A stretch of DNA of 64,000 bases. It comes from Stegostoma tigrinum (Eukaryota). Shown piece after piece: positions 1,430-58,235 of the stretch. The DNA lies in the NCBI RefSeq assembly GCF_030684315.1, contig NC_081359.1, positions 88,382,838 through 88,446,837 on the forward strand, given 5' to 3'. The notes below the pieces were generated by a model that was not told where the DNA came from, made no database searches, and saw nothing but the letters and a program-made list of their open reading frames with translations. The position numbers and the translations under genes were made by a program. Every line of letters begins with the position of its first letter. The first letter of the stretch is position 1.

Positions 1430-1905
1430 ACAGTTGGGCAGAGAATGGGTAAAGTGCAGCCTTGGGAGAATCAATAGTTGCTAATAGGGACCATTAGTGG
1501 CTGACAATGGGTTGGTTGTGATAGCAGCCCATGAAATGGCAAGATTTCCCCCAAGGGACCCAGCAGCCTTGAGGACTCAATATCAAGTTCAATAAGTTTA
1601 GTGGCTGAGCATGTCCTTACCTCACCCCCACACACCAGACTATGTCATCACATGGGCTGCTACTACAATCAACCCATTTTCAGCCACTAATTATCTCTCT
1701 GAGCTCCATCTCCACCTATCATTTACTACTCCAACCCTAAAACCCATCTTCAGCATATATACCATGCTTGTCCAGGCTACAATCAGTTCTGAGAAAGGGT
1801 CACTGGACCCAAAACGTTAACTCTGCTTTCTCTCCACAGATGCTGTTTATCCGGAATTTTCTGTTTTTATTTCTGATTTCCAGCAACCACAGCTCTTTGA
1901 TTCCT
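1430..1905 (+). mobile_element. PLE family B non-autonomous pLTR remnant
   Basis: Decayed hammerhead CTGAGAAAGGGTCACTGGACCCAAAACGTT at 1789-1818, then CAGATGCTG...ATTTCCAGCA end shared with 22195-22320, 31005-31500 and 50655-50835. Confidence 0.6.
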
Positions 1906-2345
1906 TTTTAACTGACTGAGAACTGCAACAAAGACGATTCAACTGAAAAACAGATTAGTCGAGAATGAAACCCAAGTGCTTTTCAAAACAGGTCACATGA
2001 AGTTTTAACTCTGCATCTGACCAAATATGTGCTGCACTTGGGAAAACATTCATCCTGATATGTAAATCAAAAATGCATCATTGACCAACATAATTGGCAA
2101 ACCAGTCTCCCCAATACACCTTCCTCATCCCAAATTCTTTTCCTTCCCAATGACAGCTTCTTAATCTGACAATTATCCATTCATTAACACAAACACTGTT
2201 ACTTATGAGCACTAGCTAAAGCAGTGAAGAAATACAAGATAAGTGGTGTATGCAGGGAGGCCTTACATAAATTTTCATAAATGAACAATAAACATTTTAA
2301 ATGATTACAATAAATTAAGGCAGGAAGTCTAGTGTTAACACCTAC

Positions 2346-2435
2346 TTGTGATCTACTGGGTGACTGCATCGGTTGAGATACTGAAATTCGCTCCCATCGC
2401 TTTTGAGACAATTCTTCTGATAATCGTCTATAAAA
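2346..2435 (-). CDS. VPS36: VPS36 coding exon 5
   Basis: FYRRLSEELSQKRWERISVSQPMQSPSRSQ; AAG acceptor, GTAGG donor; 90 nt. Confidence 0.94.
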
Positions 2436-7440: not shown

Positions 7441-8191
7441 ATAATTGTGTGGTAGTACAGAGCTTAAAACATTGCTAAAAGGAAACAAAAAGCAATGTTT
7501 TTGTCTTGCAATCATCAGAACTAGAACACAAGAAACATTTGAAAACAGGAACACTCCCTCATACAGCGTGACAAGAGGGTGCTGATTGATTGGGCCATCA
7601 TTGGCATGGAATGCAGCAAAAACAGTGAACTGTCAATCTTAATTCTCAGGTCAAGCAGGCAAATTCTGATTGATCAGGGAGAAACTATGGGGATGCAGCA
7701 GAGAATTGGCTGTCTCCTTGAACCTTTTCATTTTAAGCAAAAAAGGTGCAATGCATGTTAAAATTATTTTCATTCTTACAAAGCAGGATTGTGTAAATAC
7801 ATATGTACCTTCTACAATCCTTGGGACGTATGGTCTACAAACCTGGCAGCACACGGGTACTGAAACCTACCACATTACGTCCAAAGATGCAGTTCTCCTG
7901 GTAATCAACAAATGTTAGCAACAGCTGGGCCTAGAGATGGGCATTGCCGTGTATTTGAGCTCTCATGGAGTCACCACTCACTGCGTTTTGCTAAAACTCA
8001 TGAGAGGGCCTATGTCCACTACTTTGGCCCTATGCAGTTGCCAATCTACCTCAGATTAGTCTGGAAGTGGAAGGTAACTCTCAAATTTGAACTTCAGGTG
8101 AAACTATGCAGTAAACCCAAGAGATCATCAGCTGCAGCATGATAAATTTGTGCATGCTAGAAACTACAGATATAAATACATACAAAGTAGC

Positions 8192-8374
8192 AAGAACTGC
8201 AGACACTGGAGTCAGAGATAACAGTGTGGAGCTGGAGAAACATAGCAGGACAGGTAGCATCAGAGGAGCAGGAAAGTTCACTTTTCGTGGTGGAACACTT
8301 CTTCTTAAGAAATGTCAACTTTCCTGCTCCTCTGATGCTTGCAGTGTTCCTTCAGCTCCAGATGTGTTATCTCT
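8192..8374. mobile_element. Palindromic non-autonomous element made of two inverted family-A pLTR ends
   Basis: AGCATCAGAGGAGCAGGAAAGTT...AACTTTCCTGCTCCTCTGATGCT inverted arms. Confidence 0.8.
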
Positions 8375-8394
8375 AAACACATACAGCTCTTTTT

Positions 8395-8730: not shown

Positions 8731-11700
8731 CCTTTATGTAGGCAGAAAAGAATTTCTACATGCATTACACCTTGTCAACAAAAAAGAAAGGTGTCATTGA
8801 CACAGCCGATCTCCTGCTGCATCCTCATGGCGAGAACCTTACCAATCAGCCTTTACTTGCCTGGTGTGAGAATTAAGATTGATAGGTAACTGTTCTTGCT
8901 GTATTTGCATGCCACTGATGACCCAGCCAATCAGCAGCCTCTTCTTGTGTTCTTTAATATGCCGTTCCTTTTTTCAAGTCTGTTCCTTGCATCATAATTC
9001 TGATGAGTCAAGACAAAATTCTGCAACTGTTTCCCCTTTTAACAATATGTACAAGTCAGGAGCTTGTCTCAGAGTCAAATCAGCTAATAAGATTGCAAAC
9101 AGACTGCTTCATTCTCAGGCAGCTGGCAGGAAGAGAGATTAGTCAGAAGCTGGGGAGCTGTGTTTCCAGTGGAATCAGAAGACAATGGTTAGAGTCCTCC
9201 CAATACTTATTTGGAGGAGATTTCAGTTCATGCACTACTAGACACCAAACAAGCTTTTCGACATCATAGTAGATTAGGAGAGGTGCAGATGAGGTAGTAC
9301 TGAGTATCATCAGCATACAAGTGGAACTTGATAATATTACTGAAGGACAATATGCAGATCTAAGCAGGAAAAAGGAAACATATTTTGGCGTACTACAGAG
9401 ATAGGAGTGCAGGACCAGGAAGAGCTATCAGGCAGGTGATTCTTTGGCAGAATGTTGTGTTACATTTTAAGTATAATAAATAAAACCCCTTTAAATAAAA
9501 ATAAACAATAAAGCGTATAATGTGGCTTCTTAAACTTTCCACGTGCTACTTATTGAGGCCCAAAGTATAGTATTGTTGTTACAATTATGTTACATTTTAA
9601 AAACAAAAGTGGAAAGATGAGGGTGCTGCGTCCACAAACCTTTCACATCTGACTGCTGGAAGTTATCAAATATCTCAATCCGGACTTCAACACAACCCTA
9701 ACTATCTGCTATACTTCTAACTTTACATCGCTATGTTTTATCAACTTGCCCTTCTATCTCCCCCTTTTTCCAGAAAGCCATCATTAATCTGGGGAAGCCA
9801 AAAGATCAACAGCCAAAGGATTGCAGGCCCTTCCCAGTAGAATAATAAACTAAACTCATTAATTACTGTAAAACCTTTGTTAGAGCACACGCTTCCTAGC
9901 AAAACAAAACCTTCAGTTCCTTCTATTGCCAAGAGAAACACACCAAATATCCTTTTAAGTATGAAAAATATATAAACTTGGAATCTCTTGGGATAAACAT
10001 TGCCCAAGTTATTATTCCAAATTGAATATAACATCTCTGAAATTAAAGAGTATTTCTCTGGCTTTCATTCCAATCCTCTTATTGGCTCACAATCAATTCG
10101 TCCAGTTCCATTACATTTTCCAAATGGGATTTTTAAGCTTAGATATAGTAGATCACTTTAGATATAGTTAAAGCCTACAATTATTTTACAGAACTAAATG
10201 GCAATTATCAAAATCAGAAACTAGAGGAATACCATCCATCCAATACAATAACACCACATTTTAGAGCGTATTTTTACACTGAAACTCTCTAAAGAACAGC
10301 AAATACCGGAAAGTTAATTCTAAATTTATAGATAAAAGCTTTAACTCACAAGGAAAATCTTTAAGAATGAGTTACAGCAATGAAAATGATGGTCCTTCAT
10401 ACAAAATAATTATTCCTTGCATATGGTAATTCATCTTGCCAATCATTCTTCATTTGAAGCAACTTACGTTTTATCTCTCCAACCAGCAGCTTTTTTTGCA
10501 AATAATTTCCACTTTACTACACCACTCCCATACCATTTCAAACATCAACTCTCCATTTAGGTCCTCACCCCATCACCTTGTAATCACCCCCAGAACTCAC
10601 TCTGATCAACAGAGTCCTTTGTGGTAAGCAATTCCACAATCTCAGATTTTTTTTTTCTTCCCCTCTGTTGTCTCTGCTTTTTTGGTCTTGTTTTAAGCCC
10701 TTATCGTTTTGTCATTATATCAGCATAATGTCTGGTGCTCCAATTTCAATCGCTGATCCTAAAAATGGTGTCAATGTTGTTCTAACTTAGCATAAATTCA
10801 TTTTATACTTTACAGATTTCAACTGCAGTCTATTACATGCACTGAAATTGTGTGCCCTCACTAAACCTAAGTGTATTTTTCAACTAGCAGGAATAGCAAC
10901 TTTAAAATGGCTAACAACTATTATAACAATATTGTAGGCTACATGCTAAACTGGACTCTGATTTCCAATCAGAGTATCTTTACACAAGCTGCAGATTACA
11001 GGAAACCTTCATTCAACATTGTTTCACTTTAATGTCAGGACATTATTGGGACCTGAAATCTCAGTGGAACATTGAGACCTCCATTCTGATGGCATTACCA
11101 TACATGATCCAACTGGTGAGATTTGGCACACCTTTCCACACTCTGTGTCTCTACCTGTGCAGCACTGCTCCCTGTACCAGAGAGCCTCCATTCACCAAGC
11201 TCCAAGGCACAGGCTGAAGCCACCGACCACTCCCAGATACACTTCATACACTGTCACGTCAGGCTGTACACCAACAACAAACCTCTAGCAACCAGTTCCC
11301 CCTACTGAGAGGCTGCAGCACCTGTACACCCCCTCCACTGCTGCAAGGCCTACCCAGGCACAATGGAACCATCCCTCCTGGTTGGCTATGGGGCTCCAAC
11401 AAATCCAAAGCATATGTTATGTCCAAGCTCAGAGCTCCCTTCACCCTCCTCACTGGCCCCTGCAGAGCTCAATGCTTCTCTTAAAGTTGTTTCATTTAAA
11501 GTTGAGACTTTTGGGAAAGCAGTCACAAATTTAAAAAGGATTTCCTGCAATTAGATTGTGCTGTCCAGATTAATTACAGTAGCTTTTGTTACATTTAAAT
11601 TACAGTTGGTCCATTAAGTTACAACATTAGAAAGCTTTTTTCCTCCCATATAGACCAGTGGAAAGACTCTTCCAAAAAAGATGTGTTGCCTAGGTCAACT

Positions 11701-14087: not shown

Positions 14088-14304
14088 AATGGCAGACGCT
14101 GAAGCATACATATATAACAGTGTGGAGCTGGAGGAACACAGCAGGCCAGGCAGCATCAGAGGAGCAGGAAAGCTGATGTTTCGGTTCAGGATCCTTCTTC
14201 AGAAATTCAGAAACGTCGGCTTTCCTGCTCCTCTGCTGCTGTCTTGCTTGTTTTCCTCCAGCTCCATACTGTCTAATCTCCGACTCCAACATGTGCAGTT
14301 CTTA
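14088..14304. mobile_element. Palindromic non-autonomous family-A pLTR hairpin element
   Basis: GGAGCTGGAGGAA...GAGGAGCAGGAAAG / CTTTCCTGCTCCTC...TTCCTCCAGCTCC arms; hammerhead core at 14175-14202 (-). Confidence 0.8.
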
Positions 14305-14389
14305 CTATCTCAGCGTACATGTGTGTTTCCTTTGGCACTCTTGCTCCAACATCATCCAGCCAAGTAGAACGGAATCAAATAACAGCTAT

Positions 14390-16827: not shown

Positions 16828-17498
16828 ATAAGAACTAGGAGCAGGAGTAGGCCAGCTGGCCCCTTCAGCCTGCCCCACCATTCAATAAGAACATGGCTGA
16901 TCTTTTTGAGGCTCAGCTCCATTAACTGGCCCGCTCGCCATAACCCTTAATTCCTTCACTGTTCAAAAAGGTATCTAGCCTTGCCTTAAAAACATTCAGT
17001 GAGGTAGGTTCAACTGCTTCACTGTGCAGGGAATTCCATAGATTCACACCCTTTGGGTGAAGAACTTCCTCTTGACCTCAGTCCTACATCTGCTTCCCTT
17101 TATCTTGAGGCAATGCCCTCTAGTCCTAGTTTCACCTGCTAGCGCAAACAACCTCCCTGTCTCCACCTCATCTATTCCCTTCATAATCTTATATGTTTCT
17201 TGAAGATCTCCCCTCATTCTTCTGAATTCCAATGAGTATAATCCCAGTCTACTCAGTCTCTCCTCATAATCCAACCCTCTCAACTCTGGAATCAAATGAG
17301 TGAATCTCCTTTGCACCTCCTCCTGTGCTAGTATATCCCTCCTCAAGTAAGGAGACCAAAACTGCACACAGTACTCCAGTGTGGCCTCACTAGTACCTAT
17401 AAAGCTGCAGCATAGGCTCCCTGTTTTTAAACTCCATCCCTCTAGCAATGACATTGTCTTTTTAAATACCTGCTGCACCTGCAATCCCACTTTTCGTG
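16828..17498 (-). mobile_element. CR1 LINE 3' fragment
   Basis: LEYCVQFWSPYLRRDI...VQRRFT...LGLYSLEFRRMRGDL...TRGH is the CR1 ORF2 C-terminus; 3' UTR present. Confidence 0.9.
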
Positions 17499-17642
17499 CT
17501 TCAGGGGTATGGACAGTGCTATTGTGCCACAAGAGCCTTTTTATAAGTTTGAATGAGGTCCATTCTCATTTTTCTAAACGAAATGTAATGAAATAGTAAG
17601 TCAAAATATTTATTCATACCTAAGCTGCGAATGCTGTTCCTA

Positions 17643-18885: not shown

Positions 18886-18887
18886 TT

Positions 18888-19231
18888 TCATAGAATCCCC
18901 TACAGTGCAGAGGGGGGCCATTTGGTCCAACGAGTCCACACCAACCCTCCAAAGAGCATACCACCCAGACCCACCCCTCTATGCTATCTCCATAATGTTA
19001 CATTTCCCATGGTTAACCCATCTACCCTACACATTGTTGGGCACTGTGGCATGGCCAATCTACATAACCTGCACATCTCTGTACTGTGGGTGGAAACCGG
19101 AGCACCTGCAAGAAACCCATGCAGAGTGGAGAGAATTTACAAACTCCACACAGACAGCCGTGCAACGCTGGAATCAAACCTGGGTCCCTCATGCTGTGAA
19201 GCAACAGTGCTAACCACCGAGACACTGTCTC
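18888..19231 (-). mobile_element. HE1-like tRNA-derived SINE
   Basis: Pol III A/B boxes (GGTGGTTAGC, GGTTTGATTCC), V-domain-like core, CR1-like tail. Confidence 0.8.
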
Positions 19232-39339: not shown

Positions 39340-40146
39340 GTAAAATTGTATTTTGATTTAGAACCTTTGATAAGAAAAACAACAAAGGTGATTTAAGGAT
39401 AGAAAAAGCATTTCGGAAGACTTGAGAGATTAGAGGAAAGTATTGAGGTAGTAGAATTAAGACATCATATAGTACAATCTGTCATTAAAGTCATCAAAGA
39501 GTATCAACAGGCCAGAAAAGAATTATCATCTTGACTTATCATTAATATTCAACCAATGAAATATTTCTGGAATACACTTTGTGATAGCCAGTTAGGACCT
39601 GATGCATTCCAGTGCACAACTGAAGTTCTTTGCCCTCCCAACCCGTTGCCACATTGTCACTTCTGAGGAATTATGAATCACTTTTGATACATGATTCTGG
39701 CTCTTAGACTGATATCATACTAATGGCAATCAGCTATTTTAAGGAGTTGAGTTATTTTAAATGTCTTTGATCCTGAAATTGCAAACACTAGCTCTTGTCA
39801 ACAGTATGCTTCAATAAGGTGTTGTTCAGCTCCCTTGTAACGTATTTTGAGTATGTTATGGTAAATGGAAAAGACTAGATTTCACATGTATTTCTTTGCA
39901 ATTACCAAAGGATAAAGGTTTTCATTTTTCCAACTGCAAACTTTATTTACCCTTTTCAAGAAGTTGGATGGTCGAAGGGATCTTGATAATCTGGACCTTT
40001 TTGTTTTTAGTTCTAATTAAATTCCTGAAGTTTAATTTGCATGAGAAATTGTAACATAAGTTGTGTTTTTTCACTCTCTGGACCAGCCAATTCAAAAATT
40101 AGAGCACAGAAGTGGATCTTTCATATCTGAATTCTTATTTCCTTAG

Positions 40147-40317
40147 GGTTGTCCAAGTGAAGATTGTTTGAGATCTCTTCAAGCTTTCATTGAGAGTGTT
40201 CCAAAAGCCAAGAAGTTTGCAAGATACTGGATCTGTCTTGCACAGCTTGAACAACGCAAAGGATCTGTCCACGATGTCATGACTATTTATGAACAAGCCA
40301 TCAAGATAGGCGCACAG
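40147..40317 (+). CDS. CKAP2: CKAP2 coding exon 6 (CKAP2_C domain)
   Basis: GCPSEDCL...PKAKKFARYWICLAQLE...IYEQAIKIGAQ; TAG acceptor, GTACTG donor; 171 nt. Confidence 0.95.
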
Positions 40318-42114
40318 GTACTGCTAACTTTGAGAATCTCTTACTTTATTTCTCTATATTTTTAATAATTAGGATTGTCCTGTCTCACTGCAGTAGTGCA
40401 CTGGAAATCATGCCTTGCTATTACTGGAGTTATCGCAATAATTAATGATTTTGTCTTTCTATACACAGATTAATAGAAAGCACAAACCAGGTTTCTGTAC
40501 TTAACAAGAATGTCAGCTTGTTACAAATAAATTCCAGCTACAGGGGAAAAAAATTAAGAACCATCAACATTTAACTCTAAGCCCCTTAAGATTACCTCTA
40601 CCTCTATACACAAATGTAGAATGCAGTGAAATCACCTCCGTTCAAATGTTTCACTGAGATGATCCTTTTTGACTTTGACAGGACTTGCTTCCCCTCATCT
40701 CATCCCACCCCATCTCCCTCTTTCTCTCTTCTCCACATTCTTCCATTTTCCCATTTCAGTTCACAATCAAATGTACAAAAAACTGGTCTTTCCAAGATAT
40801 TAATGAAACATTTTTCACTTATACATGCTACAAGTCTTGGTTGGCATGTTAGGTTTATTCCTGAAGTGACAAAGACACAAATGCTGGTACATCTATGCTT
40901 TCAATGTGTACAAATTTGTTTGTCCAAGATTTTTGCATTCTAGTTTCTACAGTATTTGTCTGTGTTCAGCCATATTGTAATCTCTGCTCTGTATTCCTGT
41001 ACCAAATTCTTCATGTGTGCAGCAGCAAAATGAAAATCATTTTTATTTGGTGCTGGCATGATTGCATTTGCTTATGTCTTTTTAAAAATTAGATAATGTT
41101 AATCATCTGGTCAGTTTGATGGAATAGATTCTTGCCAGAATTGCAGATGGCTTGAGCTGAATCTGTCTGTCTCAGAGAGCACATTTAGGTGTAGGACTGG
41201 CTGGTTCTCTGGAAATTTTTAAAGTTGATATGCCACACCAACCAGTAAAGGCATTCTAAAATTAACTGTTCGAGTAAATTAGCTTACATTGCGAGAGTGC
41301 CATTATAGTTGTCTCCTTGATTTAGGTCAGCAAATAATACAGTCTGGTTTCAACAATTTAGCATTTTTTATTGAATTAAAGCTGGAAATTGTACCCAGTG
41401 TACTCAAATTGTGACCTCTGTTTGTTTATTAATTGATTGAAAGTTTACTTCCATGCAATGATTTAATAGACTAGATATTAAAATACTTAGTTTTATTTAC
41501 TTAAGTAAATTCAATTTTCCAATTAAAAAGCTTTTTCAACAATTAGAAATGCAGGGGCAAAGCATGAGAAACTGTGGTATTCATATTTTTTCAACATGAT
41601 TAATAACAAAAGTTTATCTCAAGCAAAATTACTTTATACATCTCACACTATTTTAAAATTAATTTAAATTTTAAGTTGAACAGCAGTGATACATTTTTTA
41701 TGCAATTCGCACCAAACTCCATTCCTCCTTTTTCTTTATCCTTTCTTTCTTTTCTTTACCCTAGAAAAACCCATATTTTCACCGATTAACCCATATTTAA
41801 AAACTGGCCCAAGATGTTGGCATTAGTAGCAAGATTGATTTCTCTGAATGCTGAAGAAAGTGCTTGGGCAAAAAAGCTGGTTTAATTTAGGATTTGAGTT
41901 GCTGCAAATGTTTTATTGTCTACATAATAGATAGTTATAAGTTTTGCAAACTTTTTTAAATGATTGAGTGTTTCTATTGATCTTCTTGCATCATCTGCAG
42001 CAGATTGTCATAGATTGATGTCACGATTGTGCAGTGGAGGCTTGGTTGATAATTGTAATTAATTGTGGTGCACTTTTTTGCAAATGTTAAGTGTTTTTTA
42101 ATTTTGTTTTACAG

Positions 42115-42187
42115 CCTGCAAATGAATTACGCAATACACTTGTAGATATTTTGAAAAACACCAAAACTCCCAAAAAAACTCATGTGG
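42115..42187 (+). CDS. CKAP2: CKAP2 coding exon 7
   Basis: PANELRNTLVDILKNTKTPKKTHV (compare human PIEEMRHTIVDIL); CAG acceptor, GTAAGT donor; 73 nt. Confidence 0.92.
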
Positions 42188-43339
42188 GTAAGTTGATGCC
42201 TTCTTTATGTATATGTTCTGGAAAATGAGTGCTCCTAGAGAGGGATCATTCTCTACAGCTGAGCCAATTGTGCACCTTTCCTGAATCATGTATGGGGGTG
42301 ATGTTCCGATATTTGACTGAACTTAATCTAGAGTCCCAACCTAATGCTCTGGGAACACTAGTTTGAATTCTATTGATAGATGGTTAAACCTGAATGTCAC
42401 AAGAATCGGGAATTAAAAGCTAGTCTAATCGTGACCATGTAAATGATGTAATTGTCAAAAGTATCTGGTTCACTAATGCCTGTTGGGGAAGGAAATCTGC
42501 TCTACATGTGATTTTCTAGACCCACAGCAATATGACTCTTAACTGCTATCTGAAATGCTGTATCAGGTCAAGGATAATTGAGGATGGGCAGATAATGCTG
42601 ACCAAACCAGTGACACGCACATCCCAGGAATGAATAAAATGTATACTTGGCATCTGAAATACTGAAAATATTCAGTAGTTGGAGACTTTTGATGGATGTA
42701 GGTCTTTTGACCTGAATTTATTTGTCAGCTATGACTCGACTGGGTAGCGCACTCACTTCTGCATCAGAGGTTTGTGGATTAAAATCCTACCGTATGACTT
42801 CACAAAAGTACTGAATGAATGCTGCACTCCCCATTTATCTTCTGAGAAATTCCAGCTCACGCTTTCCCAGAAGAACAGAAAAATTATCATCCTTGTGATG
42901 GCTGATATTTATCCCTCAAGCAACATCACAAAACATTATCTGTTCATTAACATCTTGGTGTTTTTGTGACTTTTATGTACACAAATTGCAGCCGTGTTTT
43001 CTATGCTTCAGAAGTACCTGATTGGCTGTGAAGTGCCTTTAAAATGTGCCATTCAGAATCTCTCGATTATTTCAACACACGTCTTTTTTCCCCTTATTGT
43101 TAATGAGAATAGCTATTTTCTGACATCTAATTTTCAGGAATGCACAATTATACATATTTGTTTACAGCCATCACGTAAGTAATAATCAGCAATTAATGAT
43201 TTGCTACAAGTTATTGCAGTATTCTGCACGGAAGTGTGTGTCACTCTTTCAAATCAGTCATCTATATTGTATACTTTACTTCCTTTACGTCAGTTATTCT
43301 GAGAGCACTGCTGCACTGAAGGCACCAGGAGCATGGATC

Positions 43340-43620
43340 ATCGAATCACAGCATGAAAACAGGCCTTTTGGCCTGACAAATCAACACAGACCCTTACAGC
43401 ATCATACCCAGACCCATCCCCCTATAACCCACCTGATTTACACAGCCCTGAACACTAAGGGCAACTTAGCATGACCAATTCACTTCACTTGCACATCTTT
43501 GGATTGTGGGAGGAAACCCATGCAGACACGGGGAAAATGTAGACTCCACACAGGCAGTCTCCCAAAGGTGGAATTGAACCCGGGTCCCTGGCGCTGTGAG
43601 GTGGCAATGCTAGCTACTGA
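43340..43620 (-). mobile_element. HE1-like SINE
   Basis: Reverse complement of the HE1-like head (GGAATTGAACCCGGGTCCCTGGCGCTGTGAG) and body. Confidence 0.8.
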
Positions 43621-43806
43621 TCATTGAGGATGCCAGGGAATTGAGTGCAATTAGAAAGTGTACGGAATCTTGAACTTCAGAAGTATGTATTGAGCACAAA
43701 AGTAAAGGTTATGCTGAACCATTATAAAGCTGTAATTGGGTATGTTTGGTCACCTTGACTTTTTAATTAAGATGCATATGAGGGATGTTGAGAAGCTGTA
43801 GGGACT

Positions 43807-44107
43807 TCATAGAATGTGGAAGCAGGCCATTCAGCCCATCACGTTTACATGCCCTGCCATAGAACATCTTATCCACACCCCTGCCCTGTCCCTGTAACCC
43901 TGCATTTTTTTCATGCTAATCTCTGGACATAGTGGGCAATTTAAACATGGCCAAACCACTTAGTCTGCATGTCTTTGGACTGTGGGAGGAAACCGGAGCA
44001 GTCAGAGGAAACCCACGCAGACATGGGGAGAATGTGCAAACTCCACATAGACAGCCACCCAAGGCTGGAATCGAACCTGGGACTGAGGCATCAATGCTAA
44101 CCACTGA
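43807..44107 (-). mobile_element. HE1-like SINE inserted in a CR1 remnant
   Basis: GGAATCGAACC...GCTAACCACTG reverse head; conserved body. Confidence 0.78.
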
Positions 44108-44981
44108 CCCTGGGTCTAGGGACAGAGGATCTTGGCTGCAAGGTTGGGTTGGAGAAACTGTATTGTGTCCAACTTGAGGTTGTTTTGAAGCAAAGGAGAT
44201 CTGGTGGATGTATTGAAGAATGATATTTTTGGATAGACTGGACCAGGAAAAGCTGTTCTTGTTAAATGAGCACAGATCTCAGGTTTTGGTCAAGCGGTAC
44301 AGGGGAAGTATGAGGAAGAATTTTTTTCACACAGCATTGAACTGGAATTTGCTGCTCATGAGAATAGTGGAAATAGAGACAATCAATGATTAGTTGAAGT
44401 GGAAAGAAAAATCAATGATTAAGAGGAAATTAGATGCTTTCAGGGAAATAAACTTGCAGTGCTAATAGACGGAATTTCTACCACCAAATTAACTAATTTT
44501 GAAGAATCTTTACCAGAAAAGTGGTTGGCTGGCCTATTTGTTTTGAAATTCTTCAGAACTTGCATTCTCATTACTCACGGTTTTTCAGCTTTTCATTTTG
44601 GAGACTTCCCTTTTGTTTTCAAAGGTACAAAATTTCCAAAGAAATCTTTGAATTTCTTTGGTCCCTTGACTAAACTGTAACATTATCACCGCAGTTTTTT
44701 AGCTCATAGCATTTGTGCAGTTGATAATCTTAAAGTGAATTTCCAATTTACAATGGTTTCCAGGAATTTTAAGACAGGCTTTTAAAATGTGGTTTCTAGA
44801 ATTTGTTGTCTTTGAGACCAATTCAATAATGATTTCAATCCTTTCAGATCCACATCGGGCAAAAATTAAGGACATCCAGTCAATTCAAAACTGCTTGTAT
44901 TTTGAAAATTATTTAAAGCATAACATTTAAGAATCACAGTGCAAAGTTACAAGTTTGATATGTATTTCTTGTCACCAATAG

Positions 44982-45504
44982 CAATGAACAAAACTGAAGA
45001 TGGAGTACTGAAAGATCCAAAGCTGGAACTGTGTTGTGTCACTGAACAGAGTGTTCCTGAAGGAAAAAAAGTGGAGCTGGCAGATATTGAGGAGAGGCCT
45101 TCTATAGAGGAAAATATGGGCTGCACAAATGACAAACAGGATCTCCCTCTAGAGAACCAAGAAATGTGTATTGCTGCAACTGATGATCACAATGTTCCCA
45201 AAGAAAATGATGGAGCCCCCTTGTTTATTAAACAGCAAGTTTCCTGTGATGGAAAAGCAGACCTTGCAGCAGGTGAACTGCAACTTTATGCAAGGGAAGA
45301 ACTGGCGACCACAATGAAAGAACTGCATTCTCCTTCTATGGAACAAGTGGTAAATGAAGCTGATGATGAGGATGATTGTGGAGTGGATGATGTAACAGTT
45401 GACAACATGAAGACCCCACTGAAGCAAATATTGACACCAAGTAAAATAGAAAATAGAGGATCATCTGTTAAGTATAGTGTGAAAGCAACCCCTAGGATTA
45501 AATG
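44982..45504 (+). CDS. CKAP2: CKAP2 coding exon 8 (acidic)
   Basis: (A)MNKTEDG...GSSVKYSVKATPRIK; TAG acceptor, GTAGGA donor; 523 nt; phases 1 and 2 fit the neighbouring exons. Confidence 0.88.
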
Positions 45505-45774
45505 GTAGGAAAATGTTTGATTTTTAACTACTTTCTTTTTAAATAGTAATATTTTGTGCATCTCAATAGCTCAAAGGGATGTTTGGCAATGTTCTGTAAG
45601 GATTGAGGGTTTGGCAAGATTCAGTTCTGTAAAATAGTTGTACTTTATCTGTTCATTTTTATTTTCAATTATGAGTTAATTACTCTGGGATTAAATATGT
45701 TTAATATTGTATTGACTTGATAACTCATAACTTGGTCCTGTTTGTCTTCATAACCAATCGATTCTTTTCTGCAG

Positions 45775-45997
45775 TAACAAAAATATGACTCCGTTGGAAA
45801 ACAGAAACTCTGCAATCAACGTACTGAAATTTCTGACGCCTGTGCGTCGTTCACAACGCATTGAAAAGGCATCTTCCCAAATGCCATTAATGTTGCAGGA
45901 CCATGATCCGTGTGTGTCTTCACTGGAGGATCTAAAAAAATTGGGAGAAGTATCTACAGCCTACTCATTCAGGATGAATAATGCACTACAAGAATGA
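45775..45997 (+). CDS. CKAP2: CKAP2 last coding exon
   Basis: LKFLTPVRRSQRI...MLQDHDPCVSSLEDL...FRMNNALQE* matches the conserved CKAP2 C-terminus; CAG acceptor; stop TGA. Confidence 0.95.
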
Positions 45998-47045
45998 ACT
46001 GATATTTTCAAATGAATATGGATTATCTGTTAACATTTTAATTAAATGCACCTTGTGTCCCAAAGCATCATTTAGTCCAATTGCAGTGCAGTCTGCTTCT
46101 GCATAATTGTTTCCTAGCCATTTCTAAATAGTTAATATTCTGAATTTTATACTGCCTTCAACAAAAGTGTAGAAAATTTAGTGTTTATGGCTACAGTTGT
46201 TTTCAAATACTTTAATGCTCTGCACTATGACAAAGACCTAGAAAACTGATGGATGAAAATGAGCATGGTTTTAAAACTCCCAAGTCTATTGGAGTTCAAT
46301 ACTATGCATATTCTTGTCTTTAGCTGAAGAAATTCTAACTTCTTGATCCAGTGTTGTAAGAAAAAAAATCCTTTTTTTTAATCAAGCAAAGTGCTGTAGG
46401 TTCTAATTCTGAAGTAAATACAAATAAGATTTGTTAAGCATCATCTGAGAGAGAAATGGTTCATGTTTCAGGCCACTGGGTTTTTGTCAGAACTGGGAAA
46501 TGTTAGAGTTGTAATCAATTATTTGAGCAGTGGGTGAATAGGAAATATTGTTTTCTTTCTTTGCTTGTTTTAAGTCTTCCTCCTTTCATTTAGCAACATA
46601 ACTGGTCCAGGCACATCAAGTTTTATTTCTTGCCTCATCTCCACTCCCTCTGGACCTAGAATAGTAACCATTTTGGTTCTTCATTCTCTTCTGTCTTCCA
46701 TTCTTTTACAGTGTTCTTTTAAAATCCTTGTCTCCCACCCCTCACTGACATTTCCCAGTTTTGATGAAAAGTCACTCTCACTTGAAAAACTGACTCATTT
46801 GACTCTCTGCACAGGCATTGTCTAACTGCTGAGCTTTTCCCCACCATTTTTTATGTTTTGCTTTTATTAATGGTTGGTAATGTGCAAAAGTGACCCATTC
46901 TTCCAACCTCAACAAAATTTCTGCAGATATAAATGTTTAATTCTTCAGTTATTAATGCTTGATGTGCACATTTCTAATCTTGTATAAAATATGCAATATG
47001 GTTGCAAAGGAGATTGGAAGATACTGGTAGACATAATGGGTGTTT

Positions 47046-47394: not shown

Positions 47395-47977
47395 TGATTC
47401 TTGATACTCTTCGGCTGGATTTCTTTTAAGTATTGCTTAGACATTTATTGGATGTTTCAACCTAAGTATTTCTGCTTGAATCAGTTAATTTTTAACCTGT
47501 TCAGACACCTTGAAGGCAGTTAGGATTTGTACCTGGATGAGCTTGCAGGTAGTGGCATTTCTATGTATCTGTTGCTCTTATCCATCCAAATGGAAGTGGT
47601 TATGGGTCTGAAAAGTGCGAAGGAGTCTTGGTGAAATTTGCACTTCATCTTGCACTGCTACTACTGTGCCTTTAGTGGTGGAGAAAGTGAATATGCTGTT
47701 AATCAAGCTGGTTGCTTTATCTTGGTGTTAAGCTTTGTTTGTTGGAGCAGCACACATTTTGCCAGTTTCATTTAAAGTCATTGAGTTTTTTTGGCATACA
47801 GTGCCATTCTTGCATTTGATCTTTTAAGTAGCTTGTTTCCTACATGTAGGTTTTCGACTCAGCATATTAAATACCTGGTTTGTATCCACTGAGTCTGTGC
47901 CATCATTTGAAAGATTTTTTTTTGCCTCTAATTCTGTGATGATCTGATATCTTGAGGACAGTTTTGAGAGGGGGCAG

Positions 47978-48925
47978 GGAAGGCTTGGAGACCGCTTTGC
48001 AGAACACCTCCGCTCAGTTCGCAACAAACAACTGCACCTCCCAGTCGCAAACCATTTCCACTTCCCCTCCCATTCTCTAGATGACATGTCCATCATGGGC
48101 CTCCTGCAGTGCCACAATGATGCCACCCGAAGGTTGCAGGAACAGCAACTCATATTCCACCTGGGAACCCTGCAGCCTAATGGTATCAATGTGGACTTCA
48201 CCAGTTTCAAAATCTCCCCTTCCCCTACTGCATCCCTAAACCAGCCCAGTTCGTCCCCTCCCCCCACTGCACCACACAACCAGCCCAGCTCTTTCCCCCC
48301 CCCACCCACTGCATCCCAAAACCAGTCCAACCTGTCTCTGCCTCCCTAACCGGTTCTTCCTCTCACCCATCCCTTCCTCCCACCCCTAGCCGCACCCCCC
48401 CACTACCTACTAACCTCATCCCACCTCCTTGACCTGTCCATCTTCCCTGGACTGACCTATCCCCTCCCCACCTATACTCTCTCCACCAATGTTCTTTTCT
48501 CTCCATCTTCGGTCCGCCTCCCCCTCTCTCCCTATTTATTCCAGTTCCCTCTCCGGTGAAGGGTCTAGGCCCGAAACGTCAACTTTTGTGCTCCTGAGAT
48601 GCTGCTTGGCCTGCTGTGTTCATCCAGCCTCATGTTTTATTATCTTGGTTTCTAGGTGGTTGCCTGACATGGAGACAGAGAGGTCCAGGAAGGTGAGGGA
48701 TGTGTTGGAGATGGTCCAGGTGAACTTGAGCTTGCGGTGGAAGCTGTTGGTGAAGGGGATGAACTGTTCCAGCTCCTTGTGGGACACAAAGCAGCGCCGA
48801 TGCAGTCATCAACGTAACAGAGGAAAAGGTGGGATTTAGGGACAGTGTAGCTACGGACGAGGGATTGTTCCACGAAACCTACAAAGAGGCAGGCATAACT
48901 TGGGCCCATGCGGGTGCCCATGACT
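47978..48925. mobile_element. Family-A PLE 3' end (+) joined to an inverted RT fragment (-)
   Basis: RLGDRFAEHLRSVR plus pLTR at ~47978-48648; minus-strand MGTRMGPSYACLFVG...YVDD at ~48650-48925. Confidence 0.85.
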
Positions 48926-49299
48926 AGAAACTGGTCATTCAAGAAATATGCTGCATTCTATCCACTGCATTAACATCACGTCTTTGTACACCCCATCCTG
49001 GATACTTAAAATCGAATCTAGACTTAGCGTTGTGTGGCGTGGTTATTTCAGCTCACCTCATAAAACATAGCAAATTTTGCGCCCTTCAATAAAATTTGTG
49101 ACAGAAACCAAAACCTGAACAGTAACTTTGGGATTTTTAAAATCTAACACTGCGTCCTTTCAGCATAAATAACAATGAAATGAACGTTCGTTTCACAGCT
49201 ATTTTAACACATTGACCTGGGTCACTGGCTCATTGCACAAGCTTTCTATAGCCCTAACACGTGATGATGGTGAACGCCTTCCCATGACCTCGTTTGCAG

Positions 49300-50582: not shown

Positions 50583-50654
50583 GTAAATAATGATGTGAAC
50601 TTTTGGAGAAAAGTTACTGATTTTCTTTGAAAAGTGTCATGAGACCTTCTATAA

Positions 50655-50835
50655 CGAAAACTGGAATTGCTGGAAAATCTCAGCAGGTCTGGCAGCATTG
50701 AGTTCTGAAAAAGGGCCACTGGACCTGAAATGTTAACTGTGATTTCTGTTCACAAATGTTGCCAGACCTGCTGAGCTTTTCCAGCAATTTTTGTTTTGTT
50801 TCTGATTTTCAGTGTCCACTGTTCTTTTGGGTTTT
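50655..50835. mobile_element. Palindromic family-B pLTR hairpin element in a NEK3 intron
   Basis: AATTGCTGGAAAATCTCAGCAGGTCTGGCA / TGCCAGACCTGCTGAGCTTTTCCAGCAATT arms flanking a decayed hammerhead core. Confidence 0.75.
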
Positions 50836-51391: not shown

Positions 51392-52325
51392 GTGAGAATT
51401 CGTGGAAGTAATTATCCTCAACAATTCCTTCTCCAATATTGCTCTTTAACTTATTCTAATGTTCCTCTGCTTATTGCTATTTTCCAAAGGAAATGACCTT
51501 CACAGAATTCACAGCATTAAAACAGTTTTACATGCTGCGCATAAGTCTCCCCCATCTCTCTTTAGCTAAACTTTTCTATATATTTTTTCCATTCCGTTTT
51601 CCCAGACGTTATCTAAATTTCCCTTAAATACATCATTGAAGCTTGTGTCAACTATTCCTTGTGATAGCTGGTTCCACATTCTAAATACATTCTCTGTGTA
51701 AAGATAGTTCTCCCAACTTCCCTTTTGATTTTATTAATAGCTATATTATGTTTATAGACACGAGTGCTGCTTTCGCCCACCAGAATCTGTCGGTAGTCTA
51801 GACTTTTGGCGTTAGAACATGAGGCCATTTAGCTCTTCGAACTCTGTCTATGATTGAATGAGATTATGGCAGTTTTGGAACAAAGAACAGTACAGCACAG
51901 GAACAGGCCTTTCAGCCCACCAAGACTGTGCCAACACATGATGCCTTTTTAAATTAAAAATCTTTGCCTCAATGCGATCCATTTTCCTGTATTCCCTGCC
52001 TATTCATGTATCTGACAAGATGTCTCTACTATTGTATTCCCCTCCACCGCCACCTCTGGCAGTTTATTCCAGGCACTTATCACCCTCTGTGCGCAAAGGG
52101 CTTGCTTCTCACATCTCCTTTAAGCTTATCCCCTTTTACCTAAACCCATGTCCCCATTCACTCTGCCCTGACCAATGAAGGCAAGCTTGGCATATGCATT
52201 CTTAACCAGCTTATCCACTTGTGTTCGTGATAATGGGAACTGCAGATGCTGGAGAATCCTAGATAACAAAGTGTGGAGCTGGATGAACACAGCAGGCCAA
52301 GCAGCATCTCAGGAGCACAAAAGCT

Positions 52326-52353
52326 GACGTTTCGGGCCTAGACCCTTCATCAG
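52326..52353 (-). ncRNA. Minimal hammerhead ribozyme core (family A), consensus intact
   Basis: Reverse complement reads CTGATGAAGGGTCTAGGCCCGAAACGTC. Confidence 0.75.
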
Positions 52354-53562
52354 AGAGGGGGATGGGGAGAGGGAATTGGAATAAATAGGGAGAAAGGGGT
52401 AGGCGGACCGAAGATGGAGAGAAAACAAGATAGGTAGAGAGGAGAGTATAGGTGGGGAGGTAGGGAGGGGATAGGTCAGTCCAGGGAAGATGGACAGGTC
52501 AAGGAGGCGGGATGAGGTGGTAGGTAGGAAATGGAGGTGAGGCTTGGGGTGGGAGGACGGGATTGGTGAGAGGAAGAACAGGTTAGGGAAGCAGAGACAG
52601 GCTGGGCTGGTTTTGTGATGCAGCGGGGGGAGGGGAAGAACACGTATCATCCTCCAACAACCTCCGGATACAACGTATCATCCTCCGACACTGCCGCCAT
52701 CTACAATCCGACCCCACCATCCAAACCATTTTTCCATCCCCACCCTTGTCTGCCTTCCGGAGAGACCACACTCTCCGCGACCCCCTTGTCCGCTCCACAC
52801 TCCCCTCCAACCCCACCACACCTGGCACCTTCCCCTGCAACCGCAGGAAGTGCTACACTTGCCCCCACACCTCCTCCCTCACCCCCATCCCAGGCCCCAG
52901 GATGACCTTCCATATCAAACAGATATTCACCTGCACATCTGCCAATGTGGTATATTGTATCCATTGCGCCGGGTGTAGCATCCTCTACATTGGGGAAACC
53001 AAGCAGAGGCTTGGGGACCCCTTTGCAGAACACCTCCGCTCGGTTCGCAACAAACAACTGCACCTCCCAGTCACGAACCATTTCAACTCCCCCTCCCATT
53101 CTTCAGACGACATGTCCATCATGGGCCTCCTGCAGTACCACAATGATGCCACCTGAAGGTAGCAGGAACAGCAACTCATATTCCGTTTGGGAACCCTGCA
53201 GCCCAATGGTATCAACGTGGACTTCACAAGCTTCAAAATCTCCCCTTCCCCTACTGCATCCCAAAACCAGCCCAGTTCTTCCCCTCCCCCCACTGCACCA
53301 CACAACCAGCCCAGCCTGTCTCTGCTTCCCTAACCTGTTCTTCCTCTCACCAATCCCTTCCTCCTACCTCAAGCCGCACCTCCATTTCCTACCTACCACC
53401 TCATCCAGCCTCCTTGACCTGTCCATCTTCCCTGGACTGACCTATCCCCTCCCTACCTCCCCACCTATACCCTCCTCTCTACCTATCTTGTTTTCTCTCC
53501 ATCTTCGGTCTGCCTCCCCCTCTCTCCCTATTTATTCCAATTCCCTCTCCCCATCCCCCTCT

Positions 53563-53590
53563 CTGATGAAGGGTCTAGGCCCGAAACGTC
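53563..53590 (+). ncRNA. Minimal hammerhead ribozyme core (family A), intact, sense to NEK3
   Basis: CTGATGAAGGGTCTAGGCCCGAAACGTC. Confidence 0.75.
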
Positions 53591-54769
53591 AGCTTTTGTG
53601 CTCCTGAGATGCTGCTTGGCCTGCTGTGTTCATCCAGCTCCACACTTTGTTATCCACTTGTGTTGCCTCTTTCAGGGAACTATGGACCAGTAAGCCTAGA
53701 TACCTCTATTTGTTCATGGTACTAAGGGTTCTGTCATTTACTGTATACTTCCGTCCTGCATTGGGTCTCCCAAAATGCATTACTTCACATTTGTCCAAAT
53801 TAAACTCCATCGACCATTTCTCCATCCAAGTCTCCAGCCTATGTATATTGTGCTGTTTCATCTGGCAATCCTCCTCACTGCCCAGAACTCCCCCATTCTT
53901 TGTATTGTCCTCAAACGTACTAATCAGACCACCTCCATTCTGTTCCAAATCAATCTAAAACACAAGTGTCCTAGTACTGATCCTTGAGGAGCATCACTGG
54001 TCACAGATCTCCAGTCTGAAAAAACACTCTTCTACCACTACTCTCTGTCTTCTATGACTGAGCCTGTTCTGTATCCATTTTAACAGCTCACCCCACATCC
54101 AGTGTGACTTCACTTTTGAAAGAGTCTACTATGAGGGGCCTTGTCAAAGACTTTGCTGAAGTCAATACAGATAACATCTACGACACTTCCCTCATCAATC
54201 TTCTTTCTCGTGTCCTCAAAAAATACAATCAAGTTTGTGAGACATGATCTTTCCCACACAAAAGCGTGCTTCTTGTTTGCGAATAAGTCCATATTTTTCC
54301 AAACGTGAGTAAATTTCATCCCTAAAAATTAAATCAAATGATTTCCCTACCCTGTTTGATTTTTATTCTTTCATGGGTTGTGGGCATTGGTGGCTGGGTC
54401 AGCATCTGTTACCCATTCCTTGTAGCCCATGAGCCAGATGCCTTTTGTAGGTCATTGCAGAAGACTGTGAAGTGTTAGTCACATTGATGGGGTCCAGACT
54501 CGCATGTAGGTCAGACTGAGAAAGGATGCAGAATTCCTTAACCAAAAGACATTTGTGAACCAGGTGGGTTTTTATGATAGATGACAGTAGTCATCATTAG
54601 ATCAGCTTTTAATTTTAGATTTTATTGAATTGCAGTTTCACCATTAGCAGTTAACAGTGGGATTTGAACCTCTATCCCCAGGACATTATGCTAGGAGTCT
54701 GGGTTATGAGTCTTGTGATATCACCACTATCCCACCACCTCCCTATCTTCTATGTCAACAACATTTACC

Positions 54770-56230
54770 TGCGTTACCCCTTGATGTTTTTAATATGTGG
54801 AGCTCTATGAATTTCAGTCTTGAACATATTCAACGATTGAGCCTCCACAGCTGTCTGCAATTGAGAATTCTAAACAATTCACTGTCCCGTAAGTGAAGAT
54901 ATTTCACCTCAATTTAGTTCTTAATGGCTTGCCGTTTTTATTTGGAGACTGTGTATTCTTTTCTTCTAACCACTACCCCAGCCTTGACCCATCCTGCATT
55001 GACCCTGTGATCCTGTAAGAATTTTCTATGTTTAAATGAGATCATCTTTCATTCTTCAAAAACACTAAGTAACATAGGGCCGCTCAATTTACTGTTTCCT
55101 CATAGCATGATCTCAGGAGTTAGTATTGGCAAACATTTGTTGCTCCTACTCTATGGCAAGCATGTCTTTCCCTCGCATAAAGAGAACAAAATTACACACA
55201 ATTGTGCAAGATGTCTTTACTCCTGTTGTCAAAACCTCTTGTTATAAAGGCCAACATACTGTTTGTCTGCTTAATTGCTTGCTATACCTGCATGTTAACT
55301 TTAAGTGACTCATGAATAGAGACACGCAAGTCCCTTTGAAGTTCAACATTCCCAAAAATTCTCTCAATTTAAGAAATCCCTCTCTCTGCCCTTTCTACCA
55401 AAATTGATAAGCGCACATTTCTTCACATTGTATTCCTTCTTCCCAATGTTTGCTCCAGTCACTTAGCACCTGTGCATTCCTTTGTAGCAAATTGGTATTC
55501 TCCCTAACTCATATTTCCATCTAGTTTGTGTCATCTGTAAGCTTAGAAATACTACATTTAACCCCATTCCAATTCGTTGATTTAGATTGTGAATAGCTGG
55601 GGCCCACGCACTGAGCCTTACAGTAACCCACTGCCACAGATCCAGCCCGCCAATCTGAAAATTATATTATCTTATTCCTCCTATTTTCTGTCCATTAACC
55701 AGTTCATGATCAATGCTGTACATTCCCAACAATCCCATGTGATTCAATTTTATTTCCATATCCCTGCTTGGAATGCTATTGAAAATGTCAGAAAATTTAA
55801 GTATACAGCATCCACTGCCTCTTCAAAAACTTGAATATGTTTGGAATGATTTTCACCCACAAGTCCATGGTGATTCTTCCCAATCCCACCATTATTTTCT
55901 AAATAATTTGGTGTGAATCCTTTCTTGTAAGTTCTAGCTTTTCCCTATGACTAATATTAGGTTCACATGTCTGTAGTTTTCTTTCTTCCCCTCCCTTCTT
56001 TCTTAAATACTGGGGTTACATTTGCTACCTGTCAATCTTCAGGAATCATTCAGAGTATTTAGAATTTTGAAAATTGATCACCAATACAGCTCCTACCTCT
56101 ATAGCCATATCTTTCAATACTCTGGGATGTAGGTTATTTGCTTTAAGGAACTTACCTACTTTGAATACCATTAATTTCTCTAGGAAAGATTTCTTTATCA
56201 GAATGCCTGCAACTACAGTGACAGGAAAAT
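54770..56230 (-). mobile_element. Decayed CR1 LINE
   Basis: NLHPRVLKDMA and GSVRGPQLF remnants on the minus strand. Confidence 0.65.
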
Positions 56231-56264
56231 TATTTGCAAGTAGTTCATTTTTGGTATAGGCTGT

Positions 56265-58235
56265 ATGAAACCATTTCCACAAACCCGCCTGCCCTGGTCG
56301 ATCCATTGTCTCCGCCTGCTCCTGCCCCACCCAACTTATCTCCACCTATCTGGACTCCATTTTCTCGCTTGGTCCAGGAACTCGCTACTTACGTCCAATA
56401 CACCACCCACACTCTCCACCTCCTCCTGAACTTCCAATTCCCCAGTCCCCAACACCTCATTTTTACTATGGACATCCAGTCCGTATACACCTGCATTCCC
56501 CATGCAGATGGCCTAAAGGCCCTCCGCTTCTTCCTGTCCCACAGGCCTGACCAGTCCACCTCCACTGACACCCTCATCCACTTATCCGAACTCATCCTCA
56601 CCCACAACAACTTCTCTTTCAATTCCTCCCACTTCCTACAGACAAAGAGGGTGGCCGTGGGTACCTGCATGGGCCCAAGCTACGCCTGCCTCTTTGTAGT
56701 TTACATGGAACAATCCCTCTTCCGTACCTACATTGGCTGTAAACCCACCTCTTCCTCTGTTACATTGATGACTGTTTCGGCGCCATCTCCTGCTCCCATG
56801 AGGAGCTCAAACAGTTCATCCACTTCACCAACGCCTTCCACCCCAACCTTAGGTTCACCTGGACCATCTGTAACACCTTCCTGGACCTCTCTGTCTCCAT
56901 CTCAGGCAACCAACTAGAAACCGATATCCATTTCAAGCCCACCGACTCCCACAGCTACCGAGAATACACCTCCTCCCACCCACTTCCTGCAAAAATGCCA
57001 TCCTCTATTCCCAATTCCTTCACCTCCGCTGCATCTGCTCCCAGGTTGAGGCATTCCACTCCTGTACATCTCAGATGTCCTTGTTTTTTAAGGACTGCAA
57101 CATGCCCCCCGCAGTAGTCGAGAACGCCCGCAACCGTGTCTCCCGCATTTCCCGCAACTTATCCCTCACACCCCGTTCCCCGCAATAACAACCAAAAAAG
57201 AATCCCCCTCGTCCTCACATACCACCCCACCAACCTCCAGATCCAACGCACCATCCTCCGACACTTCCGCCATCTGCAATCTGACCCCACCACTGCTTTC
57301 TGGAGGGACCACTCTCTCCGTGACTCCCTTGTCCACTCCTCACTCCCCTCCAGCCCCACCACACCCAGCATTTTTCCCTGAAACTGCAGGAAGTGCTACA
57401 CCTGCCCCCACACCTCCCCCCTCACCCCCATCCCAGGCCAAAAGACGACTTTCCACATCAAGCACAGGTTCACCTGCACATCTGCTGATGTGGTCAACTG
57501 CATCTGCTGTACCCGTTATTGCCTCCTCTGCGTCGGGGAAACCAAGCGGTGGCTTGGGGACCACTTTGTGGAACACCTATGCTCGGTTTGCGACAAACGA
57601 CTGCACCACCCAGTTGCGACCTATTTCTACTCCCCCTTCCACTCCTTGCACAACATGTCCATCCTGGGCCGCCTCCAGTGCCACAGCGATGCCACCCGAA
57701 GATGCAGGAACAGCAACTCATATTCCGCTTGGGAACCCTGCAGCCCAATGATATCAATGTGGACTTCACAAGAGTTAAAATCTGCCCTTCCCCAAATGCG
57801 TCCCAAAATCAGCCCAGCTCGTCCCCGCCTCCCTAAACTGTTCTTTCTCTCACCTATCCCCTCCTCCCACCTCAAGCTGCACCCCCATTTTCTTTGTCCC
57901 AAACGCATCCCGCCCCCTTGACCTGTGCATCCTCCGTGGACAGACCTATCCCCTCTCTACCTCCCCACCTACTCTCACCTCTACTGGCTCCATCGGCGCC
58001 TCTTTAACATGTCTGTCTTCTCTCCACCTATCTCCTCCTCTATCCATCTTCGATCTACCTCCCCCTCTCTCCCTATTTATTTCAGAACCTTCTTCCCCTC
58101 CCCAATTTCTGATGAAGGGTCTAGGCCTGAAACATCAGCTTTCCTGCTGCTAAGATGCTGCTTGCCCTCTGTGTTCATCCAGCTGTATACTTTGTTATCT
58201 CGGATTCTCCAGCATCTGCAGTCCCTATTATCTCT
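56265..58235 (+). mobile_element. Family-A PLE, RT plus GIY-YIG plus pLTR, frameshifted
   Basis: RT motifs FTMDIQSVYTCIPH, VAVGTCMGPSYACLFV and YIDD; GIY-YIG VGETKRWLGDHFVEH; pLTR with hammerhead core. Confidence 0.92.
58109..58136 (+). ncRNA. Hammerhead core variant, sense to NEK3
   Basis: CTGATGAAGGGTCTAGGCCTGAAACATC. Confidence 0.55.

Follow-up and report, generated by a model that had tools for sequence, protein, structure and literature searches.

We analysed a window of 64,000 nucleotides from the shark Stegostoma tigrinum (NCBI RefSeq assembly GCF_030684315.1, contig NC_081359.1, positions 88,382,838 to 88,446,837 of the forward strand; all positions below count from its first letter), which contains 19 copies of minimal type-I hammerhead ribozyme motifs. 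We regard it as very probable that these represent 3' ends of repeats, for the most part in broken copies, that the repeats make up at least three and likely four families (A to D), that family A is a Penelope-like retroelement (PLE) with B, C and D likely being PLEs as well, and that the replacement of the core nucleotide G12 by A is likely due to CpG decay after insertion. Directly seen in the DNA were the hammerhead core and its stems, 5'-truncated and inverted copies, and, for family A, remnants of a reverse transcriptase (RT) and a GIY-YIG endonuclease (EN). A preliminary description of the window had correctly identified the kind of motif, i.e. minimal type-I hammerheads of PLEs with a palindromic stem III, but it took the window for a dense and diverse ribozyme repertoire. 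Because most of the cores are broken, the window is a graveyard of hammerhead copies more than a repertoire.

All 15 positions named in that description bear a core. Several of its minus-strand coordinates were the low end of the motif; C3 of these copies is at 52353 (not 52326), 31352, 31694, 14202, 7518 and 26297. Copies are designated below by C3 and strand, and where the numbering of core positions goes beyond what the papers show, it is the one we take to apply. A self-BLAST combined with fuzzy anchors yielded four additional cores (A 34510-, an A-like core at 8309-, B 31103- and D 29104+). The census thus comprises ten copies of A, four of B, one of C and four of D, plus one C tail without the CUGA half. 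A strict descriptor modelled on the published one (core, stem II of at least 3 bp, GAAA, palindromic 15.2-16.2, UH, stem I of at least 2 bp) was passed by 4 of the 19 copies, namely 32947+, 53563+, 52353- and 31352-. In 100 local-dinucleotide resamplings of the window the mean was 0.01 passes and none reached four. When the descriptor was relaxed to accept A12 and a stem II of 2 bp, 31694- and 27771- were added, giving six passes versus 0.05 in the shuffled windows, while no D copy passed at any setting tried. CUGANGA and GAAA together with a stem II closed by G10.1-C11.1 are present in the three complete A copies and in one B copy, where the pair is G-U from CpG decay. The palindrome 15.2-16.2 reads ACGU in A and B and AGCU in C; it is unreadable in every D copy. 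Helix I is open-ended, which is the type-I arrangement, with 2 bp in A, 4 bp in B and, by family majority, 4 bp in C; in D it is uncertain.

The preliminary description had called for a covariance-model search. With the Rfam models, hammerhead families were absent among 14 matches at E≤10, which is plausibly explained by motifs without helix III. The best Rfam matches were to mir-761 with E values of 0.012-0.054, far below gathering, and correspond to the inverted-tail hairpins of A copies. Minimum-free-energy (MFE) folds of single copies did not contain the hammerhead fold and are uninformative for dimer-type motifs. DNA pattern scans for outside copies gave no hit in metagenomes (C tail and D core patterns), genomes (A/B pattern) or viral sequences (D and A/B patterns).

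Judged by its sequence, family A is a Penelope-like element with an RT followed, within one open reading frame, by a C-terminal GIY-YIG domain. A 5'-truncated element at 56143-58250 (plus strand) comprises RT, a CX4CX2C linker, GIY-YIG and the pseudo-long terminal repeat (pLTR). Its RT remnant (56222-56914) matched 16 of 3,152 candidates at E≤1e-10, with proteins of Chiloscyllium, Mobula and Rhincodon as the best, and the Pfam domain RVT_1 was found for the family. The stretch 56143-57770 matches the proteins P0007 and P0001 across RT, linker and EN; identity between family A and P0007, which itself matches RVT_1 and GIY-YIG, is 60-90%. Thus the GIY-YIG remnants previously described upstream of the A cores proved solid in protein comparisons. 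The CX4CX2C linker between RT and EN was also seen in the frame 52587-53240 and would point to Neptune or Nematis. Furthermore, a pLTR with a hammerhead lies behind the open reading frame (ORF), and 5'-truncated, inverted copies occur at 52262-53654 and 14092-14311. The insertion at 52262-53654 consists of an inverted pLTR (97% complementary over 380 nt), linker and GIY-YIG, and a second pLTR. The C-terminal part of GIY-YIG with a pLTR is found at 21120-21890 (plus), and at 47975-48957 GIY-YIG and pLTR on the plus strand are followed by an inverted RT fragment on the minus strand. A 39-nt tandem unit of about three copies is located just behind the end of the A ORF (21402-21516, 48215-48336), its copy number varying among insertions.

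Three A motifs are complete: 32945-32976 (plus; C3 at 32947, predicted cut after 32974, GUC triplet), 53561-53592 (plus, C3 at 53563) and 52324-52355 (minus, C3 at 52353), the last within the inverted pLTR copy. The core at 21760-21791 (plus) has the stem III palindrome broken by the CpG change G16.2 to A, while that at 58107-58138 (plus) carries the two CpG changes C11.1 to U and G16.2 to A. U4 and A6 are mutated at 48551-48582 (plus), and at 31665-31696 (minus) G12 is changed to A and C15.2 to U, both at CpG sites. The latter copy has a perfect palindromic stem-loop II at 31675-31686, as previously described; with one G-U pair the palindrome holds for the intact A copies as well. A distal CAUC/GAUG helix, mentioned earlier as a possible extra part of the weak stem I, was discarded, because it is absent from the two older copies 58109 and 31694. 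The remaining cores are decayed: 34481-34512 (minus), 14173-14204 (minus) inside a hairpin-shaped mini-insertion in an intron of VPS36 (14092-14311), and the A-like core 8278-8311 (minus) inside a second such mini-insertion (8196-8371).

Mini-insertions composed of inverted tail, hammerhead and tail form long hairpins at 14092-14311, 8196-8371 and 50650-50800, with folding energies of -117, -89 and -74 kcal/mol, respectively. Two of them are located in VPS36 introns and could yield double-stranded RNA. The two A-type mini-insertions join at an identical 4-nt microhomology, the reverse complement of GAAA versus the bases preceding CUGA, so they could stem from a template switch that recurred, or belong to a small family of non-autonomous elements.

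Family B is represented by the motif at 31319-31356 (minus), which has a 4-bp stem I, a G10.1-U11.1 wobble from CpG decay and a GUU triplet, and by three broken cores: 31070-31107 (minus), heavily decayed and following the 31352 copy head-to-tail at a distance of about 250 nt; 1785-1822 (plus), with G8 and G12 both changed to A; and 50701-50738 (plus), decayed. The architecture is PLE-like: 5'-truncated pieces lie inverted at 1480-1533 and 50650-50700, and the copies 31352/31103 form a head-to-tail pair. No GIY-YIG had been described for B; we found a weak candidate for its last codons at 1552-1600 (plus), upstream of copy 1789 and adjoining the inverted piece of untranslated region (UTR) at 1480-1533, as a 15-codon match to the GIY-YIG C-terminus with E 0.72 in 48 frames. 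In an alignment, A and B had in common the core, the GGGUC start of stem II, the ACGU of stem III and a tail block. In three of four pairwise comparisons of A and B tails, one to four of 300 shuffles scored as well, in the fourth 130 of 300. A and B thus look like sister families with one hammerhead design.

Side observations concern the tails of both families. The core at 50705 lies in the loop of the inverted-tail hairpin 50650-50800, where the hammerhead is clamped beside helix I; in a young copy, helix I might gain stability from this. By eye, the A tails (52240-52320 on the minus strand and 58140-58230) and the B tail (50740-50830) appear to have in common a GAUGCUG/CAGCAUC pairing over a long range, together with an inner GCUG/CAGC hairpin whose loops differ. 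Pairing and inner hairpin together are a candidate signal for the initiation of reverse transcription.

The single C core at 27739-27775 (minus) has A12 and a CUU triplet. Relatives of C were read from four runs of contigs. At position 27740 the majority letter, with 82-87% of depth in all four runs, restores a 4-bp stem I, and the window copy of C is therefore decayed at sites beyond G12, too. At 27336-27438 (minus), a tail of C is present whose CUGA half is missing. The stretch 28450-28596 (minus), likely the C-terminal end of a family C ORF with GIY-YIG, matched this domain with a targeted E of 0.05, so that the GIY-YIG remnants described upstream of C are suggestive only. Near 28600 this ORF end is back to back with the start of a D 3' region on the plus strand. 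C is a very abundant repeat. In run X1, 28,089 of 20,502,419 contigs were placed on the 1.65-kb stretch 26200-27850, and nearly all of the depth was on the C tail and UTR, with sums of up to 355,000 versus about 9-12 on unique parts, values which do not represent a copy number. A HMMER search with the antisense frame of the C tail returned four matches, two of them unrelated and two homologues, P0017 and P0018; these junk proteins are antisense translations of C copies outside the window. P0018, such a translation of the C tail, is labelled Proteus mirabilis and stems from a 297-nt contig; it is likely shark contamination of a bacterial record. In the tail comparison, the tails of C and D were both unrelated to that of A.

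Family D has a 2-bp stem II and no unpaired base before it. All of its four cores are decayed; A12 is present in 8996-9030 (plus), 7490-7522 (minus) and 26268-26301 (minus), while 29100-29135 (plus) has retained G12 in the context T-GAAA. A broken PLE-type RT remnant at 26637-27260 (plus) is inverted beside copy 26297, and a DNA homologue of it is located at 7887-7936, upstream of copy 7518. The RT pieces beside these two D copies gave targeted E values of 4e-4 twice and window-wide values of 0.4-0.6. GIY-YIG remnants, described earlier upstream of D as well, were not detected beside D in a targeted comparison; only RT remnants adjoin it. In Pfam, nothing relevant was found in 10 frames on the B-D side. 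In the four contig runs, hardly any other copies covered the D core.

G12 is the general base of the hammerhead. In the motif it follows C11.1 and forms a CpG; C15.2-G16.2 is the second one. The observed/expected ratio of CpG in the window is 0.28. We counted mismatches in nine of the ten A copies (A-like 8309 was left out) and in the four B copies. In A, CpG positions were mismatched in 16 of 53 cases, compared to 6 of 90 in the non-CpG core and 50 of 604 in the tail (6-8%); in B the non-CpG core had 5 of 44 and the tail 43 of 264 mismatches. Excess conservation of the core over its flanks, which the preliminary description had named as a test, was thus seen in neither family. This is as expected for inert insertions, for which such a test among copies is ill-posed. 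Selection is visible across families, not across copies: the core is kept while stem I differs (CU/AG, AGUU/AACU, ACAC/GUGU).

A 31694 and B 1789, from families that otherwise have G12, show the change of G12 to A, too. The mirror change of C11.1 to T is present in 58109, 31352, 50705 and D 29104, and C11.1 is changed in 31103, too. D 29104 with its T-GAAA is the opposite product of decay, with G12 kept. In run X13, 59 contigs had a loose end at the G12-equivalent place of C with the consensus T-G on the element strand, and G12 was found in single C contig groups of runs X1 and X15. P0017 has a G12 codon and P0018 an A12 codon. The best reading of the change from G12 to A is decay of the CpG C11.1-G12. 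The letters A12 reported earlier are indeed there, in C and in three of four D copies; as a design of these families they were set aside, being very improbable in view of the CpG site, the same change in A and B copies, and G12 in D 29104, in outside C copies and in P0017. With A and B apparently being sister families of one design, the four different designs of the preliminary description are not borne out.

The 5' part of VPS36 is on the minus strand of the window, with exon 1 near 20400 (Pfam) and further exons near 5900 and 2400 (matches to the PDB chains 2hth/2dx5). CKAP2 is on the plus strand, with the domain CKAP2_C at 45731-45994 (Pfam). The two genes (VPS36 1-20480, CKAP2 about 33400-46000) are head to head with a spacer of about 13 kb, in which 8 of the 19 hammerhead cores are located and all four families are represented. 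Between 26.2 and 33 kb there is a cluster of PLE fragments that belong to different families.

The literature on related motifs, cited here and below in excerpts from each source, suggests how such copies arise. In PLEs, stem III is a palindrome of 4-6 nt; a single motif is inactive, and slow cleavage occurs when two motifs in a tandem transcript pair via the palindrome. A review states this dimer model (PMC6765202), and the motif of Schistosoma showed no cleavage as a monomer and low cleavage as a dimer (PMC4209133). For the Poseidon element of Anolis carolinensis (PAc), cleavage needed the protein of the element and was dispensable for insertion in vitro (PMC11167929). By analogy, the pLTR hammerheads of active source elements would trim tandem transcripts, helped by the ORF protein. 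The insertions would be copied from uncleaved RNA, because of which the whole motif would be kept in them, and would then decay neutrally, fastest at the CpGs C11.1-G12 and C15.2-G16.2. The four complete copies are likely inert, since no two complete cores share one insertion and strand and none is in a mapped VPS36 intron.

Several points weigh against our overall reading. The kinship of A and B is significant in three of four pairs only. For B, C and D, the protein matches that speak for a PLE are weak, the protein searches with the D RT remnant gave 0 of 197 and 0 of 1 candidates, no outside D copy came up in the metagenome and viral pattern scans, and no D copy is complete. Hammerhead activity of the window copies is a prediction. 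Moreover, A12 is present in both C pieces of the window, in P0018 as one of the two outside homologues and in three of the four D copies; at position 27750, the G12 of C, the evidence for G12 is that of the contig groups and of P0017 above. C and D might therefore truly use A12 in place of the general base and have a non-canonical or non-catalytic hammerhead fold. We consider this very improbable, as G12 is the established general base, the letter concerned is the G of a CpG that has changed likewise in A 31694 and B 1789, and G12 is kept in D 29104, P0017 and outside copies of C. Even more far-fetched is the idea that some complete copies were co-opted to cut the host transcripts of VPS36 or CKAP2. 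Copy 32947+ is a few hundred bases upstream of a GC-rich stretch that we take as the CKAP2 promoter. Yet the five VPS36-side cores (1789, 7518, 8309, 9000 and 14202) all fail the descriptor, and the complete copies are young, near-identical members of their family (97%) that have no partner on the same strand. Host co-option was rejected on these grounds.

Two further proposals ascribe additional structure to the motifs. D might be a distinct architecture, in which the loop of the 2-bp stem II is base-paired to the sequence immediately preceding stem I, i.e. a PLE hammerhead stabilised by a tertiary pseudoknot. In the majority sequence of the four D copies, the stem II loop region has a perfect Watson-Crick complement in a 7-mer that lies upstream of stem I (-10.1 kcal/mol); a match as good occurred in 0.65% of 10,000 shuffles and in 52 of 9,115 places of the window background. 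Other hammerheads are known to function with stems II of 2 bp and with pseudoknots between stems I and II (PMC3088659), and the shortest stem II among 56 published PLE motifs is 3 bp (PMC4209133). On the other hand, the pseudoknot was noticed post hoc in one of four families looked at, single D copies are not significant (0.10-0.56 of shuffles), compensatory changes among the four copies are lacking, and the MFE fold of D 7518 indicates that the 7-bp pairing could instead be an inhibitory hairpin that buries CUGAUGA. We consider the pseudoknot unlikely, though the least so of the alternatives. In family A, the self-complementary stem-loop II could nucleate RNA dimers, proceeding from a kissing loop to an extended duplex, and so compensate for the 2-bp stem I and the 4-bp stem III. 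The 12-bp self-duplex amounts to -22.6 to -23.8 kcal/mol, while the hairpin has -3.7 and stem III -1.7 kcal/mol, two cofolded A copies pair through stem-loop II, and a one-sided change from U-G to U-A in A 31694 preserves self-complementarity. Yet a palindromic 4-nt loop confers the self-duplex property on any hairpin, which happens by chance in about 1 of 16; the loops of B, C and A-like 8309 are non-palindromic; and a two-molecule ring via both helix II and helix III is probably sterically unfavourable. Dimer nucleation therefore appears improbable to us.

The published PLE motifs of metazoa (PMC4209133) share with ours CUGANGA followed by an unpaired H, G10.1-C11.1, GAAA, the palindromic 15.2-16.2, NUH and a short helix I. 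They, too, are positioned behind the ORF, in copies that are mostly solo and truncated, and several families occur per genome, e.g. six in Latimeria and eight in Xenopus (Cervera & de la Peña 2014, PMC4209133). A 2-bp helix I is known from Drosophila virilis, Culex and Oikopleura (PMC4209133), and the triplets GUC, GUU and CUU are all among published motifs (PMC4209133, Fig. S3/S4). Thus the coexisting families, the 2-bp stem I and the three triplets of the preliminary description are present here, but they had been reported in 2014. The published consensus CUGANGA-H-G..C-GAAA-palindrome-NUH fits A, B and, save for A12, C (PMC4209133). Compared with the 56 motifs of Fig. S3 (PMC4209133), the stem II of D is the shortest; the unpaired H is missing from D, as it is from two of the listed motifs. 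In addition, its pseudoknot is a matter of sequence complementarity only, while the pseudoknotted hammerheads with a stem II of 1-2 bp described by Perreault et al. 2011 (PMC3088659) are, in the passages cited, not tied to PLEs.

Family A resembles the EN-containing PLEs of the Neptune/Nematis type (Craig et al. 2021, PMC8557442) in having RT, a CX2-5CxxC linker, C-terminal GIY-YIG, a pLTR with hammerhead and inverted 5'-truncated copies; it differs in that no full-length element or intact ORF is present in the window. PAc, a vertebrate PLE with a pLTR hammerhead, is the best functional model, and in the excerpts cited no RNA-seq ends were at the cut (PMC11167929). Yet it is of another clade than family A, and its ORF starts inside the ribozyme (PMC11167929). 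PLE-derived type-I hammerhead units also constitute the non-LTR retrozymes, and hammerhead retrozymes were reported in one chondrichthyan (bioRxiv 10.64898/2026.07.22.740005). No tandem array of units with complete hammerheads exists in the window, the sole head-to-tail pair (B 31352/31103) having one broken core, and for lack of tandem units a retrozyme array was discarded. Cartilaginous fish are absent from the 56 motifs of Fig. S3 (PMC4209133), Penelope is listed in the excerpt of a whale shark paper, and a literature search on Penelope hammerheads in sharks retrieved no relevant paper.

The window also contains other repeats. Remnants of another RT-encoding repeat, which we presume to be CR1/L2-like, are located at 17044-17565, 61500-62182 and 63092-63926, with an RVT_1 match of E 6e-12 at 63092. 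A dispersed family resembling short interspersed elements was seen at 19130-19220, 24290-24434, 37200-37443, 43509-44081 and 60900-61029.

Taken together, the data extend the observation of 2014 to sharks, where several families of PLEs carry minimal hammerheads and copy numbers are very high. They also call for caution, because the motif has two CpGs, at which decay driven by methylation produces false variants of the core such as G12A. If the pseudoknot were true, D would be a differently built Penelope hammerhead with a tertiary contact undescribed for metazoan minimal motifs in the parts of PMC4209133 cited. If either the D pseudoknot or the palindromic loop of A were functional, this would bear on the slowness of PLE hammerheads in vitro and on dimer formation; if both were, shark PLEs would solve the problem of a weak ribozyme in several ways within one genome.

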